UHGV virus genome: UHGV-1720524
Strand: one strand, 5' to 3'
Source: a virus
Length of the DNA: 24,552 nt
Shown here: one piece after another, positions 75 to 24,552 of the stretch
Layout of the letters: every line of letters starts with the position of its first letter
Numbering within the stretch: position 1 is the stretch's first letter
Position numbers and translations under genes: made by a program
The notes under the pieces: generated by a model
Databases searched by the model: none
The model's input: only the letters and a program-made list of their open reading frames with translations
Told to the model about the DNA's origin: nothing

Positions 75-162
75 GCTTTTTTATACTAAGTTGGCATTAT
101 AAAAAAGCATTGCTTATCAATTTGTTGCAACGAACAGGTCACTATCAGTCAAAATAAAATCA
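60..162. other. attL: attL (B-O-P') prophage/host junction: 15-bp core GCTTTTTTATACTAA at 75-89 followed by the lambda P' arm
   Basis: Core sequence seen directly at 75-89; downstream GTTGGCATTATAAAAAAGCATTGCTTATCAATTTGTTGCAACGAACAGGTCACTATCAGTCAAAATAAAATCATTATTTG matches the lambda P' arm (Int arm-type and IHF sites) as I recall it, and abuts the int stop. Confidence 0.85.
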
Positions 163-1233
163 TTATTTGATTTCAATTTTGTCCCACTCCCTGCCTCTGT
201 CATCACGATACTGTGATGCCATGGTGTCCGACTTATGCCCGAGAAGATGTTGAGCAAACTTATCGCTTATCTGCTTCTCATAGAGTCTTGCAGACAAACT
301 GCGCAACTCGTGAAAGGTAGGCGGATCCCCTTCGAAGGAAAGACCTGATGCTTTTCGTGCGCGCATAAAATACCTTGATACTGTGCCGGATGAAAGCGGT
401 TCACGACGAGTAGATGCAATTATGGTTTCTCCGCCAAGAATCTCTTTGCATTTATCAAGTGTTTCCTTCATTGATATCCCGAGAGCATCAACATGCAATG
501 TTGTTGGGATGGCAATTTTTACGCCTGTTTTGCTTTGCTCGACATAAAGATATCCATCTACGATATCAGACCACTTCATTTCGCATAAATCACCAACTCG
601 TTGCCCGGTAACAACAGCCAGTTCCATTGCAAGTCTGAGCCAACATGGTGATGATTCTGCTGCTTGATAAATTTTCAGGTATTCGTCAGCCGTAAGTCTT
701 GATCTCCTTACCTCTGATTTTGCTGCGCGAGTGGCAGCGACAGGGTTTGTTGTTATATGGCCTTCAGCTATTGCCTCTCGGAATGCATCGCTCAGTGTTG
801 ATCTGATTAACTTGGCTGACGCCGCCTTGCCCTCGTCTATGTATCCATTGAGCATTGCCGCAATTTCTTTTGTGGTGATGTCTTCAAGTGGAGCATCAGG
901 CAGACCCCTCCTTATTGCTTTAATTTTGCTCATGTAATTTATGAGTGTCTTCTGCTTGATTCCTCTGCTGGCCAGGATTTTTTCGTAGCGATCAAGCCAT
1001 GAATGTAACGTAACGGAATTATCACTGTTGATTCTCGCTGTCAGAGGCTTGTGTTTGTGTCCTGAAAATAACTCAATGTTGGCCTGTATAGCTTCAGTGA
1101 TTGCGATTCGCCTGTCTCTGCCTAATCCAAACTCTTTACCCGTCCTTGGGTCCCTGTAGCAGTAATATCCATTGTTTCTTATATAAAGGTTAGGGGGTAA
1201 ATCCCGGCGCTCATGACTTCGCCTTCTTCCCAT
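163..1233 (-). CDS. int: Tyrosine site-specific integrase, lambda Int (356 aa)
   Basis: ORF translation MGRRRSHERRDLPPNLYIRNNGYYCYRDPRTGKEF...DKIEIK matches lambda Int essentially along its length from memory; sits directly next to attL. Confidence 0.97.
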   Translation of the reverse strand: MGRRRSHERRDLPPNLYIRNNGYYCYRDPRTGKEFGLGRDRRIAITEAIQANIELFSGHKHKPLTARINSDNSVTLHSWLDRYEKILASRGIKQKTLINYMSKIKAIRRGLPDAPLEDITTKEIAAMLNGYIDEGKAASAKLIRSTLSDAFREAIAEGHITTNPVAATRAAKSEVRRSRLTADEYLKIYQAAESSPCWLRLAMELAVVTGQRVGDLCEMKWSDIVDGYLYVEQSKTGVKIAIPTTLHVDALGISMKETLDKCKEILGGETIIASTRREPLSSGTVSRYFMRARKASGLSFEGDPPTFHELRSLSARLYEKQISDKFAQHLLGHKSDTMASQYRDDRGREWDKIEIK

Positions 1234-4093: not shown

Positions 4094-4311
4094 TTCGAAC
4101 CTCTCTGTTTACTGATAAGCTCCAGATCCTCCTGGCAACTTGCACAAGTCCGACAACCCTGAACGACCAGGCGTCTTCGTTCATCTATCGGATCGCCACA
4201 CTCACAACAATGAGTGGCAGATACAGTCTGGTAGTTCAGACGACACATTTTTATTGCTGTGTTGCGCTGTAATTCTTCAATTTCTGATGCTGAATCAATG
4301 ATGTCTGCCAT
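4090..4311 (-). CDS. TraR/DksA-type C4 zinc-finger protein (73 aa)
   Basis: CCECGDPIDERRR...CRTCASCQ: four-Cys motif with the spacing typical of phage TraR/DksA-family proteins; 4-nt overlap with the upstream gene. Confidence 0.6.
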   Translation of the reverse strand: MADIIDSASEIEELQRNTAIKMCRLNYQTVSATHCCECGDPIDERRRLVVQGCRTCASCQEDLELISKQRGSK

Positions 4312-9237: not shown

Positions 9238-9468
9238 ATGAACCCAGCAATCAAAACAGCGATCAATATCGTTGGTTCACAAAAGAAACTAGGCGATGCC
9301 TGCGAAGTTTCACAGCAGGCCGTCTATAAGTGGCTTCACAACAAAGCAAAGGTATCCCCTGAACATGTCGGCAGCATTGTTACGGCTACTGGTGGAGTTG
9401 TGAAGGCATACCAGATTCGCCCGGATCTTCCGAAGTTGTTTCCACACACCGAAAAGAACGCAGCTTAA
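9238..9468 (+). CDS. Cro-like HTH regulator of the YdaS family (76 aa)
   Basis: VGSQKKLGDACEVSQQAVYKWLHNK...IRPDL resembles Rac YdaS / Cro-type HTH proteins as recalled; GGAGG Shine-Dalgarno; first gene after pR. Confidence 0.7.
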   Translation: MNPAIKTAINIVGSQKKLGDACEVSQQAVYKWLHNKAKVSPEHVGSIVTATGGVVKAYQIRPDLPKLFPHTEKNAA

Positions 9469-9490
9469 ATTTCCATTTCACGCTCTTTAA

Positions 9491-9499
9491 CAATAAGCA
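9491..9499 (+). promoter_or_regulatory. boxA-like element (CGCTCTTTA) in the nutR position
   Basis: 9-mer matching the lambdoid boxA consensus CGCTCTT(T)A, located between cro and the cII-position gene; no obvious boxB hairpin nearby. Confidence 0.35.
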
Positions 9500-9537
9500 A
9501 TCAACTTAACAGTCAATTCAAACTAAAGGAGTCAATT

Positions 9538-10077
9538 ATGCAACCACTTACATACCAACAGACTAGCGGATTTATTCCGACTGCGGTGATAAATCGTTCT
9601 CAAACAAAACAAGCTCCAGGCCACGAAAAAATCCGTGATGCCGTCCGCGCCTGGTCGGCTGTAGATAATCAGGATGTCGTTGCCGCACTCATTGTGAATG
9701 AGTATCGGGAGCAGGGCGACGGCACCATCGATTTCCCTGATGATGTCAGCCGTGCACGCCAGAAGCTGTTCCGCTTCCTCGATAACAAATTCGATTCTGA
9801 AAAATACCGAAATAACGTGCGTGAACTGACCCCGGCAATTCTGGCGGTACTACCGCTGGAATATCGCGGTTACCTGGTTGAGCAGGATAGCTTCATGACT
9901 CGGTTGGCTGAAATGGAAAAGGAACTCAGTGAGGCAAAACAGGCTGTCATTCTCAACGCACCACGCCACCAGAAACTGAAGGAAATGAGTGAAGGTATTG
10001 TGTCGATGTTTCGTGTGGACCCGGATCTGGCTGGTCCATTAATGGCGATGGTGACCACCATGCTGGGGGCAATATGA
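9538..10077 (+). CDS. YdaT-like protein in the cII position (179 aa)
   Basis: LTPAILAVLPLEYRGYL and surrounding region resemble Rac YdaT (LIPAILAILPRELRHRL) as recalled; good Shine-Dalgarno (AAGGAG). Confidence 0.55.
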   Translation: MQPLTYQQTSGFIPTAVINRSQTKQAPGHEKIRDAVRAWSAVDNQDVVAALIVNEYREQGDGTIDFPDDVSRARQKLFRFLDNKFDSEKYRNNVRELTPAILAVLPLEYRGYLVEQDSFMTRLAEMEKELSEAKQAVILNAPRHQKLKEMSEGIVSMFRVDPDLAGPLMAMVTTMLGAI

Positions 10078-16772: not shown

Positions 16773-17855
16773 TTAGAACTGGTAAACCATACCTACAGCA
16801 ACGATATCATCGGTAGCAACGCCAGATGCTTTCGTGAAATCGCTCTTATCAATCAGGTTGATTTTGTAGTCAACAAAAGTGGACATATTTTTGTTGAAGT
16901 AATAGGTTGCACCTACATCAACATATTCAACCAGGTCCTGATCACCCCAAACACCCAAGTCTTTTCCTTTAGAATGCAGGTAAGCAACGGATGGACGCAG
17001 GCCGAAGTCGAACTGATATTGTGCAACAGCTTCGAAGTTTTGTGCTTTGTTGGCAATATGGTTATTACCAAAAACAGTCATGTTCTGGGTTTCAGAATAG
17101 GTGGTGGCCAGATAGATGTTGTTCGCATCATATTTCAGACCAGCTGCCCATACTTCAGCATTTTGACCAGAAGCATTCAGACCGTTGTTACCGTAGATAA
17201 CCTGATTATTAGTGCGATCAGATTTAGCATAGGTTGCACCCACGCCGAATCCTTCATACTCATAAGTAGTTGAGAAACCGAAACCATCGCCATTAGCTTC
17301 AGTTACTTCATTTCGGTCATTTTTGCCCTGATACTGAGCTGCAAAGTTCAGGCCATCAACCAGACCAAAGAAGTCGTTGTTACGATAAGTTGCAACACCT
17401 GTGGTGCGACCAGTCATGAATACATCTGTTTGGGTCCAGGTATCGCCACCGAATTCTGGCAGAACGTCAGTCCACGCACCGATGTCGTATGCTACACCGT
17501 AGTTACGGCCGTAATCGATTGAGCCGTAGTCACCGAATTTCAGGCCTGCAAATGCAAGACGGGTTTTGTCTTTGGAGGAACCTTGAGATTCAGCGCGGTT
17601 GCCTTTGAATTCATATTCCCACTGACCGAAACCAGTCAGTTGATCGTTGATTTGGGTTTCACCTTTGAAGCCAAGACGGGCATAAGTAGTATCACCATCA
17701 TCTGCATCATTAGAGGAGAAGTAGTGCTTAGCATTAACTTTCCCGTACAGATCCAGCTTGTTACTGTCTTTATTATAAATTTCAGCTGCCTGAGCAGACA
17801 TCGCCATCAGTACTGATGCAGCTACAGCAGAAATTGCCACTGTTAATTTTTTCAT
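16773..17855 (-). CDS. nmpC: Outer-membrane general porin (OmpC/OmpF family; phage-borne NmpC/Lc type), 360 aa, apparently intact
   Basis: Signal peptide [30 protein letters not shown]...LDLYGK start, and C-terminal ...VAVGMVYQF typical of enterobacterial porins; located between Q and the holin on the opposite strand as in DLP12/PA-2. Confidence 0.9.
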
Positions 17856-19601: not shown

Positions 19602-19738
19602 AATCTTAACTACAATATGATTCATTTTGATGATTGTTTCATAAGGAACAGTGAAGTAAGATCTAAGAGGAGTTAAATTTTATACAGTATAATCATAATA
19701 TTGCAGCAAGGTGGTTATAATTGAAAGAATATTTAGAT

Positions 19739-21196
19739 ATGAATACATCTCATGTAAGAGTTGTTACTCATATGTGTGGGTTCCTGGTTTGGCTCTATAG
19801 TCTTTCAATGTTGCCACCAATGGTTGTAGCATTGTTTTATAAAGAAAAAAGCCTGTTCGTTTTCTTTATAACTTTCGTTATATTTTTTTGCATTGGTGGC
19901 GGAGCGTGGTATACAACTAAGAAATCTGGCATTCAATTACGTACCCGTGATGGGTTTATTATAATTGTAATGTTTTGGATTTTGTTTTCTGTTATTAGTG
20001 CATTCCCTTTATGGATTGACTCAGAACTTAATTTAACGTTCATTGATGCTCTGTTTGAAGGGGTTTCTGGAATAACAACAACAGGAGCAACTGTAATTGA
20101 TGATGTTAGTTCATTACCTCGGGCATATTTGTACTATCGGTCACAGTTAAATTTTATAGGTGGTTTAGGAGTTATTGTTCTGGCGGTTGCTGTATTGCCA
20201 TTATTGGGTATTGGTGGTGCAAAGCTTTATCAGTCAGAAATGCCGGGGCCATTTAAGGATGACAAACTCACTCCCCGCCTGGCCGATACGTCACGGACAC
20301 TGTGGATAACTTATTCTTTATTAGGTATTGCTTGTATTGTCTGTTATAGACTTGCAGGAATGCCTTTGTTTGATGCTATTTGTCACGGGATTTCCACAGT
20401 TTCGCTTGGTGGTTTCTCAACTCATAGCGAGAGTATCGGATATTTTAATAACTATTTGGTTGAGCTGGTGGCTGGTTCTTTTTCCCTGCTATCGGCTTTC
20501 AACTTCACTCTTTGGTATATTGTTATTAGCAGGAAAACGATAAAACCTTTAATCAGAGATATTGAACTTCGTTTCTTTCTGTTAATAGCCTTAGGGGTGA
20601 TCATTGTTACCTCTTTCCAGGTCTGGCATATAGGTATGTATGACTTGCATGGAAGTTTTATTCATTCGTTTTTTCTTGCCAGCTCCATGCTCACTGATAA
20701 TGGTTTAGCTACGCAGGATTATGCAAGTTGGCCCACGCACACGATAGTGTTTTTGCTGTTGTCAAGTTTCTTTGGGGGATGTATAGGTTCAACTTGTGGT
20801 GGAATTAAGTCACTTCGATTTCTTATACTTTTCAAACAAAGCAAACACGAGATAAATCAGCTTTCTCATCCCAGAGCGTTGTTGAGTGTAAATGTAGGAG
20901 GGAAGATAGTTACAGATCGTGTAATGAGGTCTGTATGGAGTTTCTTTTTTCTTTATACTCTCTTCACGGTGTTTTTTATACTGGTGTTAAATGGTATGGG
21001 ATATGATTTTCTTACATCATTTGCAACAGTGGCTGCATGTATTAATAATATGGGATTAGGTTTTGGGGCTACTGCATCGTCATTCGGAGTGCTTAATGAC
21101 ATTGCAAAATGTTTAATGTGCATAGCTATGATTCTTGGTCGCCTTGAAATTTATCCTGTTATTATATTGTTTTCAGGTTTTTTTTGGCGCTCCTAA
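19739..21196 (+). CDS. trkG: TrkG/TrkH-family K+ uptake membrane protein (485 aa from MNTSHVRVV), AT-rich moron
   Basis: Polytopic membrane protein matching Rac-prophage TrkG as recalled; low GC; preceded by an AT-rich region with TATAAT-like boxes. The track ORF starts at an upstream TTG. Confidence 0.88.
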   Translation: MNTSHVRVVTHMCGFLVWLYSLSMLPPMVVALFYKEKSLFVFFITFVIFFCIGGGAWYTTKKSGIQLRTRDGFIIIVMFWILFSVISAFPLWIDSELNLTFIDALFEGVSGITTTGATVIDDVSSLPRAYLYYRSQLNFIGGLGVIVLAVAVLPLLGIGGAKLYQSEMPGPFKDDKLTPRLADTSRTLWITYSLLGIACIVCYRLAGMPLFDAICHGISTVSLGGFSTHSESIGYFNNYLVELVAGSFSLLSAFNFTLWYIVISRKTIKPLIRDIELRFFLLIALGVIIVTSFQVWHIGMYDLHGSFIHSFFLASSMLTDNGLATQDYASWPTHTIVFLLLSSFFGGCIGSTCGGIKSLRFLILFKQSKHEINQLSHPRALLSVNVGGKIVTDRVMRSVWSFFFLYTLFTVFFILVLNGMGYDFLTSFATVAACINNMGLGFGATASSFGVLNDIAKCLMCIAMILGRLEIYPVIILFSGFFWRS

Positions 21197-21333: not shown

Positions 21334-22125
21334 ATGAGCGAGAAATTAAAGATAGTCTATCGCCCATTACAAGAATTGTCACCGTATGCGCACAACGCCA
21401 GGACGCACAGCCCTGAGCAGGTGGCACAACTGGTAGAAAGTATTAAGCAATTCGGCTGGACTAATCCGGTGCTGATTGACGAAAAGGGCGAAATTATTGC
21501 GGGTCACGGTCGTGTTATGGCGGCTGAAATGCTCAAAATGGATTCTGTTCCGGTCATTGTTCTGTCTGGCCTGACGGATGAGCAGAAAAAGGCGTACCGC
21601 CTGGCAGATAATCGCCTGCCGATGAATGCTGGCTGGGATGAAGATCTGTTGCGGATGGAGCTGTCGGACCTAATCAATGCTGATTTTGATGTCTCCCTGA
21701 CAGGCTTCATCCCGACAGAAATTGATGAACTGTTGACGGATGTTTTGCCCGGTACAGGAAATGAGGAGGAGCCGTATACGACGAAAATTGATACGCCTGT
21801 TTATGAGCCGTCGGGCGGTAAACCGGATATCAGTGAACTGTACGACGATACGAAAACTCAGGAGCTGATCAGCCGGATACGTTCGGCGTCCCTTGAGCCT
21901 GATATTGAGAAATTCCTCCTGTGTGCGGCAGAACGTCACACGGTGTTTAATTTCAGCAGAATTGCGGACTATTACGCTCACGCCCCCTCTGAAATTCAGT
22001 GTTTTTTCGAGGAGTCGGCGCTGGTGATCATTGATTATCAGCAGGCTATTGAAAATGGATTTGTCCGGATGACGCAGCGCATGGTGGAGATCATGCATGG
22101 TGGTGAGGAGGAGGAATATGCGTGA
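21334..22125 (+). CDS. ParB-like nuclease-domain protein (263 aa)
   Basis: N-terminal L.ELSPYAHNARTHS...PVLID.KGEIIAGHGRVMAA resembles the ParB/Srx N-terminal domain (GHxR motif); acidic C-terminal tail. Confidence 0.6.
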   Translation: MSEKLKIVYRPLQELSPYAHNARTHSPEQVAQLVESIKQFGWTNPVLIDEKGEIIAGHGRVMAAEMLKMDSVPVIVLSGLTDEQKKAYRLADNRLPMNAGWDEDLLRMELSDLINADFDVSLTGFIPTEIDELLTDVLPGTGNEEEPYTTKIDTPVYEPSGGKPDISELYDDTKTQELISRIRSASLEPDIEKFLLCAAERHTVFNFSRIADYYAHAPSEIQCFFEESALVIIDYQQAIENGFVRMTQRMVEIMHGGEEEEYA

Positions 22126-23050
22126 TGATTTTTGCGCCTTTATTCTGACTCACGGGCGACCGGACAAAGTTCTGACTTACCGGACGTTGCGTCGTGCTGG
22201 CTATACCGGGAAAATTTTTATCGTTGTTGATGATGAAGATAAGACACGGAATCAGTACATGGCTGAATTTGGTGAACAGGTGCTGGTGTTTTCCAAAGCC
22301 GATATCGCCAGTCGTTTTGACGAAGCCGATAATTTCTGTGACCGCCGCTCAATTTTTTACGCCCGTAATGCCTGTTTCGACCTGGCAAAACTGGTCGGGT
22401 GTAAATACTTCATTCAGCTCGATGATGATTATCACGAGTTCCAGTTTCGGGTGGATCGCAACTATGACCAGGCCTATTTTCCGATAAGGAAACTGGATGC
22501 GATCCTTTCTGAAATGCTGGCGTACTACGAATCAATACCTGCTCTTTCCATCGCTATGTCGCAGGGCGGGGATTTTCTTGGTGACAATGGCGGCCATGCT
22601 TCGTGGGTGAAACGCAAGGCAATGAACAGCTTTATCTGTTCGGTTGATCGACCGTTCTCATTCATGGGGCGCATTAACGAGGATGTGAATACGTACACGA
22701 ATCTCGGTCGCTGTGGTGAATTGTTTATGACGATCGGTGCTGTCCAGTTAGGGCAGAAACAGACGCAGAAAAACAGCGGCGGAATGACCGAGCTGTATCT
22801 GGATTCCGGAACCTACGTTAAAAGTTTTTACTCCGTCATGTATGCGCCGTCGTGCGTAAAAATCTCACTGATGGGTGCCAGCCATAAACGCATTCACCAT
22901 CAGGTCACCTGGAACAACGCTGCAGTAAAAATCCTTCACGAAAAATACAGGAAGAAGACACCCTGCATATCAATGGGGATGACAAATGATTCCGTATTCG
23001 AAAGTCGAGTCTCTGGCAGCGTGCCGGATGACTGCACAACAAATCGCTGA
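22118..23050 (+). CDS. Protein of unknown function with Rossmann-like N-terminus and DxD-type motif (FIQLDDDYHEF); possible GT-A-like transferase (310 aa from MRDDF)
   Basis: Beta-alpha-beta pattern FCAFILTHGRPDKVLTYRTLRRAGYTGKIFIVVDDED and later DDD motif; GAGGAGGAGG Shine-Dalgarno before the MRDDF start; overlaps the ParB-like stop by 8 nt. Family assignment is speculative. Confidence 0.45.
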   Translation: MRDDFCAFILTHGRPDKVLTYRTLRRAGYTGKIFIVVDDEDKTRNQYMAEFGEQVLVFSKADIASRFDEADNFCDRRSIFYARNACFDLAKLVGCKYFIQLDDDYHEFQFRVDRNYDQAYFPIRKLDAILSEMLAYYESIPALSIAMSQGGDFLGDNGGHASWVKRKAMNSFICSVDRPFSFMGRINEDVNTYTNLGRCGELFMTIGAVQLGQKQTQKNSGGMTELYLDSGTYVKSFYSVMYAPSCVKISLMGASHKRIHHQVTWNNAAVKILHEKYRKKTPCISMGMTNDSVFESRVSGSVPDDCTTNR

Positions 23051-23240: not shown

Positions 23241-24335
23241 ATGAGCAGACCGGACTGGGGGGCGTTGCAGCAGGAGTATATTGCTGAATACACCCGCTCC
23301 GGTATATCTCCGGTGGCATGGTGTGAAGCAAGGGGACTGAATTACGCAACAGCCCGTCGTTACATCAAAAAAACTCCGAAAAATGCGCAGACAGAAATGT
23401 GCAAAACTGCGCAAAAAAGTGCGCAGAAAAAATCTGCGCAGACTGCACAAAAGCGGAACGAAAAATCTCAGGAAAAAAAGCCAGTATTCGATGCGGGCCT
23501 GAATGAGGGCGACGCGGAGGAATTTTCGTTCTGTCCCGATGAATTCGGCATTTCTGACCAGCAGGCTAAGTTTGCGATGCTTGTTGCTCAGGGTAAAAAG
23601 CCGACAGAGGCGTACCGACTAGCCGGTTATGAGGGGCAAGGTGCGACAGCTAACAGCAACGCCAGTCGTATGCTTAGAAATGCCAGGGTTTTTCGCGCTA
23701 TCAGCTACTTCCGCAATCAGTACCAGAAACGCTATACCGCAGACCTGGATTTACTAGTGAGTCAGTTGATGGCTATTGTCCTGGCCGACCCCAATCAGCT
23801 TGCACAATTTCGCCGTGTTAACTGCCGTTATTGCTGGGGCGAGAATCATCTCTACCAGTGGCGCGATATAGCAGAATTCGACAAGGCAGCGGCGCAGGCT
23901 TCCAGAGATGGCAAACCCGAACCGGAATATGGAGGCCTCGGCTTTGTTGATAACGCCATACCCAATCCGGACTGCCCGAAGTGCTGCGGTGAGGGAACGG
24001 GACAGCTTTATATGGCTGATACCACTCTGCTTGATGGGGATGCGCGGCAATTATATGCAGGGGCAAAATTCGGAAAATTCGGCGTTGAGATCCTGCTGGA
24101 GGATAAGGCTGCCGCCCGGCGTGAATTGTTGCGTTTGTTTTCTGCTGGCGGGGCTTTATGTGCAGATAAACGGCTACAGGAACTGGAAATTGAACGGCGC
24201 AGAATGGAAAACCAGAAGCTGCGCAAAGAGATCGAAACGGTGGAAGATAATGAACATCCCCAGCCTGTGGCGATCAATATTAATGTGGTTGATGCCAGAG
24301 TAAGGAGTGATGAAGATGATCTCTCCGACGCTTAA
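23241..24335 (+). CDS. Terminase small subunit (Terminase_2-like core with N-terminal extension), 364 aa
   Basis: FAMLVAQGKKPTEAYRLAGYEG...ANSNASRMLRNARVFRAISYF resembles the terminase small-subunit family signature; immediately precedes a Walker-A ORF. Confidence 0.7.
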   Translation: MSRPDWGALQQEYIAEYTRSGISPVAWCEARGLNYATARRYIKKTPKNAQTEMCKTAQKSAQKKSAQTAQKRNEKSQEKKPVFDAGLNEGDAEEFSFCPDEFGISDQQAKFAMLVAQGKKPTEAYRLAGYEGQGATANSNASRMLRNARVFRAISYFRNQYQKRYTADLDLLVSQLMAIVLADPNQLAQFRRVNCRYCWGENHLYQWRDIAEFDKAAAQASRDGKPEPEYGGLGFVDNAIPNPDCPKCCGEGTGQLYMADTTLLDGDARQLYAGAKFGKFGVEILLEDKAAARRELLRLFSAGGALCADKRLQELEIERRRMENQKLRKEIETVEDNEHPQPVAININVVDARVRSDEDDLSDA

Positions 24336-24468
24336 TGTGCCTCAGGCGCGATTTCTTTCAATGCCCCATAAATTTAAAGCCTATATTGCTGGTTTTGGCT
24401 CGGGCAAAACATGGGTTGGGTGTGGCGGCATATGCAAGGGGATTTGGGAGCATCCAGGTATAAATCAG
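24316..24468 (+). pseudogene. Terminase large subunit, N-terminal fragment only (Walker A GFGSGKT), interrupted by IS1
   Basis: Hand translation MISPTLNVPQARFLSMPHKFKAYIAGFGSGKTWVGCGGICKGIWEHPGINQG then stop; the reading frame runs straight into the IS1 terminal inverted repeat at 24469. Confidence 0.7.
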
Positions 24469-24552
24469 GGGTAGTGACTCCAACTTACTGATAGTGCTTT
24501 ATGTTCAGATAATGCCCGATGACCTTGTCATGCAGCTCCACCGATTTTGAGA
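24469..24552 (-). mobile_element. IS1: IS1 end (terminal inverted repeat plus 3' end of insB), element continues beyond the window
   Basis: GGTAGTGACTCCAACTTACTGATAGTGCTTTATGTTCAGATAATGCCCGATGACCTTGTCATGCAGCTCCACCGATTTTGAGA matches the IS1 terminus as recalled (a few mismatches to the copy I remember). Confidence 0.85.

Follow-up and report, generated by a model that had tools for sequence, protein, structure and literature searches.

The prophage and its terminase genes

The window, i.e., the whole stretch of 24,552 nucleotides that was analysed, begins close to the left attachment site of a lambdoid prophage and ends shortly after the large terminase gene, terL, has run into the end of an IS1 element. 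The features that carry the description are the following:

75-89, plus strand: attL core GCTTTTTTATACTAA (15 bp), lambda-type, attλ between ybhC and ybhB
163-1233, minus strand: int, a tyrosine integrase of 356 aa, with the excisionase adjacent
23241-24335, plus strand: intact small terminase gene, terS (Pfam Terminase_2, E 3.7e-8)
24316-24474, plus strand: truncated terL ORF, with ATG at 24316, 52 codons and the stop TAG at 24472-24474
24388-24411, plus strand: Walker A motif (P-loop) AGFGSGKT in the translation, TerL residues 25-32
24469-24470: junction of terL and IS1, equal to H10407 position 884371 and very probably the left breakpoint of a deletion
24470-24552, minus strand: right (IRR) end of an IS1 of the IS1X2 type, recognised by identity to IS1A and IS1X2 (83 nt, running off the window end)
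24470-24492: imperfect 23-bp terminal inverted repeat, IRR, with the sequence GGTAGTGACTCCAACTTACTGAT
24485-24550, minus strand: last 21 codons and stop of insB/insAB′, from the translation

In regard to the element as a whole, the attL core has the ybhC side before it and a lambda-like P′ arm and int after it. The same core, GCTTTTTTATACTAA, lies at 21618-21632 of sequence L001, 579 bp beyond the IS1 element, together with a B′ arm (cttgagcgaaacgggaaggt). With this core at both ends, ybhC and ybhB as flanks and an integrase gene adjacent to an excisionase gene, the element is a lambdoid prophage that occupies attλ and is oriented as lambda is. From the attL core to the attR core it measures 25.8 kb (about 26 kb), IS1 included. 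The gene order is attL, int/xis, exo-bet-gam, an S24-type repressor, a cro-like gene, O/P, the nin region and Q, followed by a porin gene, the holin/lysozyme/spanin genes, trkG, a ParB-like gene, a glycosyltransferase gene, terS and terL. An earlier note, made from the window alone, had judged the immunity, replication and lysis modules to look intact, and this impression holds: full-length Pfam matches were obtained for the repressor (HTH_3 and Peptidase_S24), the cro-like gene (YdaS/P22_Cro type) and a YdaT-domain gene, as well as for O, P, the antiterminator Q, the P21-type holin and the lysozyme, and RefSeq sets no pseudogene flag on any of these immunity, replication, Q and lysis genes.

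Further decay is present within the prophage, where the DUF1317 gene carries a frameshift and the DUF550 gene is truncated. A "partial ynaK" called by PGAP was considered as an additional case and rejected, as the ORF has its full length and agrees in 262/263 positions with the corresponding protein of enterotoxigenic (ETEC) strain H10407. The gene is annotated as intact in strain 50EVAW, and the partial call is an annotation inconsistency.

The terS gene overlaps the start of terL by 20 nt at its 3′ end, and its protein (WP_000089447.1) is common to strain MIN9 and to H10407. The ORF at 24316-24474 translates as MISPTLNVPQARFLSMPHKFKAYIAGFGSGKTWVGCGGICKGIWEHPGINQG*, and all 52 residues recur without change (100% identity) at the N-terminus of the intact TerL of H10407, a protein of 433 aa (tblastn E 2e-30). 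In the intact protein, Pfam recognises Terminase_6N at residues 24-238 (E 3.6e-33) and Terminase_6C at residues 255-417; of the ATPase domain, the fragment retains no more than the initial 29 residues (24-52 of 24-238), and a Pfam search with the fragment itself (residues 1-52) gave no match. The Walker A assignment is based on the pattern [AG]xxxxGK[ST], which AGFGSGKT fits, and on the Pfam Terminase_6N match, at the start of which the motif is positioned; a PDB sequence search with the intact TerL as query returned nothing at E <= 0.01. The fragment keeps Walker A alone and has no C-terminal RNase H-like nuclease domain. It is what remains of a large terminase of the Terminase_6 type and no longer a functional member of the family, and RefSeq labels the same stretch in the MIN9, QDFD216 and 50EVAW genomes as "terminase, incomplete, missing C-terminus".

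The IS1 end and the sequence beyond it

The earlier note had described an ORF of about 51 codons that enters an IS1 terminal inverted repeat and the 3′ end of insB, continuing to the end of the window, and the detailed comparison agrees with it on both counts. The number of codons read is 52, with the junction located in codon 52; this codon (GGG) spans the junction and still encodes Gly, the native gene having GGA, and the TAG stop of the terL fragment falls within IS1. The position of the junction (24469/24470) is ambiguous by one G. The segment 24470-24552 matches the IRR end of K-12 IS1A in 79/83 positions (E 4e-36) and complete 768-bp IS1X2 copies of MIN9 in 83/83, and the concern that it might be too divergent to be IS1 can thus be set aside. 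Its minus strand reads SKSVELHDKVIGHYLNIKHYQ* at 24485-24550, which is exactly the InsB C-terminus of K-12 IS1A. The terminal inverted repeats are those of IS1, imperfect, about 23 bp long and of the form GGT..TG..CCAACTTACTGAT, with 18/23 positions matching between IRR (GGTAGTGACTCCAACTTACTGAT) and IRL (GGTGATGCTGCCAACTTACTGAT).

A set of 5,426 complete E. coli genomes was searched for the junction and for the window. The junction query (window 24200-24552) was fully covered in four of them, the fourth being TB354, in which a separate IS1B insertion lies 133 bp further into terL. Only three genomes of the set contain the 24.5-kb window in full, those of MIN9 (human isolate, Poland), QDFD216 (dog, China) and 50EVAW (human, Singapore). 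In direct comparison, the window differs from each of these by 2-3 SNPs, and base 4245 of the window differs from all three. As the window is identical to none of them, it stems from a fourth genome that is closely akin to these three. The structure past base 24552 in its own genome is deduced from these relatives, and the same arrangement is very likely to be found there.

In all three genomes the IS1 at the junction is complete (768 bp), carries the RefSeq product name "IS1-like element IS1X2 family transposase" and is annotated with an intact transposase produced by a programmed frameshift. The A-run of the insA/insB -1 frameshift reads TTAAAAAACTC on the coding strand (gagttttttaa around 20730 of sequence L001). 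The MIN9 copy shows gap-free 94.1% identity to IS1A, and another IS1X2 copy of MIN9 matches it at 100%. By its length, terminal repeats, reading frames and identity, the junction element is a member of the IS1 family.

Extension past the window, as proposed in the earlier note, led to the other end of the IS1 in these three near-identical genomes, and neither of the two structures expected behind it, a target-site duplication and the remainder of terL, is present. The sequence directly past the IRL end is CTGGTGATAGTATAC..., and not terL, which from codon 52 on would read GGATATTTTGCGCCAACG... if IS1 had simply been inserted. In all three, the prophage right end follows for 579 bp and leads to the attR core, ybhB, bioA and bioBFCD, and the 3 kb downstream agree among the three genomes save for one base that sets MIN9 apart. 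The 9 bp to the left of IS1 are TAAATCAGG and the right flank in MIN9 is CTGGTGATA, the downstream sequence being the same in QDFD216 and 50EVAW. Since these 9-mers differ, there is no target-site duplication of 8-9 bp around IS1 in any of the three genomes. Likewise, a tblastn search of the interval from attL to attR found nothing that encodes TerL past residue 52, and an intact terL elsewhere in the same prophage, which would have spoken against the earlier note, is therefore absent.

The extent of the loss can be read against the intact attλ prophage of H10407 (NC_017633.1, about 862.2-909.8 kb). The two prophages share the integration site, the int family, the TerS protein and the sequence flanking both breakpoints, whereas the 24.8-kb late region is kept in H10407 and missing from the remnant; the early region of H10407 is mosaic when set against the window, and no more than four blocks align (94-99%). 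Ahead of the breakpoint, 1,271 bp of the remnant correspond to H10407 883101-884371 with 100% identity, which persists up to the junction and then switches to IS1, and the 1,262 bp past IS1 correspond to 909195-910456 with 99.9% identity and in the same orientation. Accordingly, the 768 bp of IS1 stand in the place of H10407 884372-909194 (24,823 bp), with the qualification that the ancestral late region is modelled on H10407 and that the real ancestor could differ or could already have undergone partial deletion. In H10407, this interval comprises the remaining part of terL and 22 genes:

Packaging and head: terL codons 52-433, portal (DUF4055), minor head protein, DUF6651 protein, P22-type major capsid protein
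Middle: five small ORFs between the capsid and tail genes, one of them tail terminator-like
Tail: tail tube, tape measure, L/K/I/J-type tail tip genes, Lom, tail fibre, fibre assembly protein
Other: a diguanylate cyclase (GGDEF) gene

A relocated late region was sought by megablast in the chromosome records of the three genomes, with a chimeric query in which the left and right flanks were combined with terL nt 400-700. No extra place was found for terL nt 400-700 or for the terS/terL overlap, in a test that misses copies below about 85% identity or on plasmids. The matching places obtained with the chimeric query (2, 3 and 4) equal the counts for the right flank alone, the three genomes ranking at the top, which indicates that the late region was lost and not moved.

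Other insertion sequence events at the same locus

Several other strains carry insertion sequences in the same part of the prophage. In EM18-18-42, a different IS1X2-like copy (96.9% identical) joins terL nt 1120 to a point at the right end that is located 62 bp from the right breakpoint of MIN9. F829 carries a simple IS1A insertion, flanked by a 9-bp duplication, at a distance of 3 bp from the right breakpoint. The IS1B of TB354 is likewise a simple insertion with a duplication, located in terL, and L73 has IS3 insertions in terS and terL. The IS1 copies of F829, TB354 and EM18-18-42 are oriented as the junction IS1. Both ends of the deletion are therefore targets of IS1, as these independent events demonstrate. 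TB354 and L73 have the target genes in common with the remnant, and TB354 also the IS family and its orientation, but their insertions are accompanied by target-site duplications and the interrupted gene continues on the far side, neither of which is the case in the remnant.

The GC content is 26% in the right-hand region as compared to 46% at the terL breakpoint. IS1 prefers AT-rich targets, and the composition of the right-hand region fits this preference. The AT-rich stretch adjoining attR acts as a repeated landing site for IS1. This landing site and the similar deletion from terL to the right end in an unrelated strain are the only mildly unusual aspects of the locus. In each of the three strains, at least 40 places match IS1, and another deletion bordered by IS1X2 is situated only 28 kb away.

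Origin of the junction and its consequences

We consider it highly probable that the window closes with the left junction of one IS1X2 copy, at a site where about 25 kb of a lambdoid prophage was deleted. In the three closest genomes there is a single IS, the distant flanks are collinear and co-oriented with those of the intact prophage and the intervening DNA is absent; a single IS between distant collinear flanks, with the duplication missing, is characteristic of a deletion that depends on an IS. According to this explanation, an IS1-dependent event would have taken out all of the DNA between terL codon 52 and a point 579 bp ahead of the attR core, and left one copy of IS1 between the two breakpoints. 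This could have happened in two ways. An IS1 residing at one breakpoint could have attacked the other site in the course of abortive or intramolecular transposition; alternatively, two directly oriented IS1 copies, one at each breakpoint, could have recombined. An intermediate with IS1 at either exact breakpoint was sought among the 5,426 complete genomes and none was found, the nearby simple insertions of F829 and TB354 involving different IS1 isoforms and different bases, so that the route with one IS1 and the route with two fit equally well. Precedents exist for both, as large IS1X2-associated deletions in clinical E. coli have been ascribed to abortive transposition (PMC10569738), while recombination between IS1 copies was observed in the long-term evolution experiment, in which prophage DNA is also the preferred target of IS-mediated deletions (PMC4173774). 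The statement of the earlier note that an IS1 insertion truncates terL after the Walker A motif is in this light correct as to the identity of the element and the position of the cut, just after Walker A, and incorrect as to a simple insertion.

The outcome would be a cryptic prophage of about 26 kb, in which the att sites, int/xis and the immunity, replication and lysis genes are intact, and which could neither cut and package DNA nor build a virion. The earlier note had concluded that the prophage cannot package DNA; this is correct and even understated, as every virion gene is gone too. Its description of the element as defective and domesticated is likewise appropriate in the first part, while nothing found here supports the second. 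Judging from the gene content, SOS induction could still bring about excision, replication and lysis, but never virions.

It has also to be considered whether the remnant could be a helper-dependent, satellite-like mobile element that excises, replicates, supplies TerS and is packaged by a phage, co-resident or superinfecting, with a compatible TerL and capsid. The functions required on the side of the element are in place (int, xis, both att cores, O, P and terS), near-identical TerL proteins are common in E. coli phages and prophages, and a similar deletion arose twice, in the MIN9 lineage and in EM18-18-42. There is a precedent as well, in O157 Sakai, where defective lambdoid prophages without head and packaging genes are packaged via complementation (PMC2669165). 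Against this stand the absence of any sign of selection or mobility, with three carriers that look clonal at the locus (2-3 SNPs), the decay of the DUF1317 and DUF550 genes, and the AT-rich IS1 hotspot (26% GC), which explains the recurrent breakpoints. Furthermore, megablast found no compatible terL in the three chromosomes, and complemented packaging would therefore need an incoming helper. We regard a satellite-like element as very improbable, and give as little credence to the broader proposal that the loss of the late region is not chance erosion but a recurrent, possibly selected, IS1-driven conversion of lambdoid prophages at attλ to capsid-less, terS-bearing elements, which could still undergo excision, replication and lysis and be mobilised by helpers with the very common compatible module of TerL and capsid. 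If that proposal were true, the two deletions from terL to the right end, in the MIN9 lineage and in EM18-18-42, would be the first hint of such a recurrent conversion.

A simple insertion of IS1 in codon 52 of terL, with a 9-bp duplication and with the rest of terL and the late region continuing behind it, would be compatible with the window alone, which ends 83 nt into IS1, and insertions of IS1 and IS3 in the same terL and terS genes do exist in TB354 and L73. For MIN9, QDFD216 and 50EVAW, which have the exact junction, this model is refuted and was rejected, since the right end, attR and ybhB lie past IS1 and both marks of a simple insertion, the 8-9 bp duplication and the continuation of terL, are missing. 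Moreover, none of the 5,426 genomes (0/5,426) combines the junction with a continuing terL, the insertion of TB354 being a separate one. It is accordingly very unlikely that the window's own genome has such a structure.

An inversion or translocation, in which the late genes were moved by recombination between two IS1 copies and terL, intact or truncated at its 5′ end, now lies elsewhere beside another IS1, would find ample substrate in the at least 40 IS1-matching places per genome. An inversion would not give flanks that are collinear and co-oriented with H10407, with the right flank running into attR and ybhB, and the chimeric query with terL nt 400-700 revealed no extra place in the three chromosomes at the sensitivity of megablast, which leaves this explanation with hardly any probability. 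An assembly artefact, in which the collapse of repeats at IS1 produced an apparent join to the prophage right end, is just as implausible: the numerous IS1 copies of these genomes are repeats of the sort that classically gives rise to misjoins, but three complete assemblies of different isolates from different countries have the same structure downstream, the independent strain EM18-18-42 shows an analogous and distinct deletion, and the small chromosomes (4.54-4.59 Mb) fit a real loss.

The IS1X2-dependent deletion that we favour has its closest counterparts in the IS1X2-linked deletions described at nfsB and at the capsule locus (PMC10569738). These share with it a single IS1 of the same isoform name at the junction, a one-sided loss of tens of kb, collinear flanks and the absence of a target-site duplication. 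The present case differs from them in that the block lost is the morphogenesis module of a prophage, and in that the event is fixed in a small lineage and not confined to a subpopulation. Likewise, the DLP12, Rac and Qin prophages of K-12 and the Sp prophages of O157 Sakai (PMC2669165) are lambdoid, have kept early, Q and lysis genes together with cargo and have lost structural genes through IS-linked damage. The kinship extends to gene names, as essD/rrrD/rzpD, quuD, trkG and the porin gene of the remnant are named in RefSeq after homologues in DLP12 and Rac. In contrast to these cryptic prophages, both att sites and int/xis are intact here at attλ, and the loss consists of one clean IS1-bordered block, so that its history can be read directly against the intact prophage of H10407.

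No description of this particular locus was found in the literature, in which the papers on QDFD216 and 50EVAW were represented by their abstracts. The locus is already annotated in RefSeq, and an IS1-bordered deletion of this kind is a well-known and ordinary form of prophage erosion in E. coli. Current understanding is left unchallenged. For annotation, the element is to be treated as a prophage that lacks all virion genes and not merely as one hit in terL. As every virion gene is missing, neither reversion nor precise excision of IS1 could restore the prophage. The locus also offers a clean, datable example of the expansion of IS1 eroding prophages.

Early region and late-operon genes

The genes of the prophage considered here are the following.
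9238-10077, plus strand: YdaS-type protein (76 aa) and YdaT-domain protein (179 aa), at the cro and cII positions
16773-17855, minus strand: OmpC/NmpC-like porin, between Q and the holin gene
19721-21196, plus strand: TrkG potassium transporter, located after the lysis genes and before the ParB-like gene
21334-22125, plus strand: ParB_N-domain protein (263 aa), in the region directly upstream of terS
22097-23050, plus strand: 317-aa TAGT protein

In regard to the early region, YdaS/YdaT proteins occupy the cro and cII positions as they do in Rac, adjacent to O/P of the lambda type and an S24 repressor that is lambda-like. Compared with the intact prophage of the ETEC strain H10407, this region is mosaic: alignable sequence is confined to four blocks, at 94-99%. 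The late operon holds two cargo genes, the porin, which lies on the strand opposite to the operon, and TrkG, and both were retained after the late-region deletion.

Upstream of terS, the ParB_N gene overlaps the gene for the 317-aa protein, which has a strong Pfam match to the TET-associated glycosyltransferase family (TAGT, E 8e-35), and the pair may represent a DNA-modification module. In MIN9 and QDFD216, RefSeq labels the ParB_N gene as a truncated pseudogene of 258 bp ("ynaK, missing C-terminus"). Decay of ynaK was rejected, since the reading frame is open across all 263 codons, its product is identical to the full-length H10407 protein at 262 of 263 positions, and the gene is annotated as intact in 50EVAW; the label is therefore an annotation inconsistency.

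A second IS1X2 copy in MIN9

Outside the window, another IS1X2 element was found left of the prophage in MIN9.
3132607-3133374 of the MIN9 record: second IS1X2 copy, some 28 kb to the left of the junction in terL

It is 100% identical to the copy at the terL junction and in direct orientation to it. A deletion junction is present here as well: relative to strain 6EVA, 2,664 bp are gone, a loss that takes ybhI completely together with a 3′ portion of ybhH and a 5′ portion of ybhJ, and no target-site duplication was present in the flanks of this copy. Between the two elements lie the remaining part of ybhJ, ybhC and the complete prophage remnant, an arrangement that resembles a composite transposon. 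The paired copies are a substrate for another deletion.

Recurrent insertions and the carrier lineage

In this prophage family, both the AT-rich right end and the terminase genes have been struck by IS elements, repeatedly and independently.
EM18-18-42: a further deletion bordered by IS1, which runs from terL to the prophage's right end
F829: simple insertion of IS1A, 3 bp away from the right breakpoint of the MIN9 lineage
TB354: IS1B inserted in terL, and an IS3-linked deletion
L73: two IS3 insertions, one in terS and one in terL

At position 4245 the window carries A, where all three otherwise matching complete genomes (MIN9, QDFD216 and 50EVAW) carry G, so the window derives from a fourth, unsampled close relative. 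The chromosomes of these three carriers are small (4.54-4.59 Mb) and each contains at least 40 IS1-matching places, which together suggests an IS1-expanded lineage that is losing genes.
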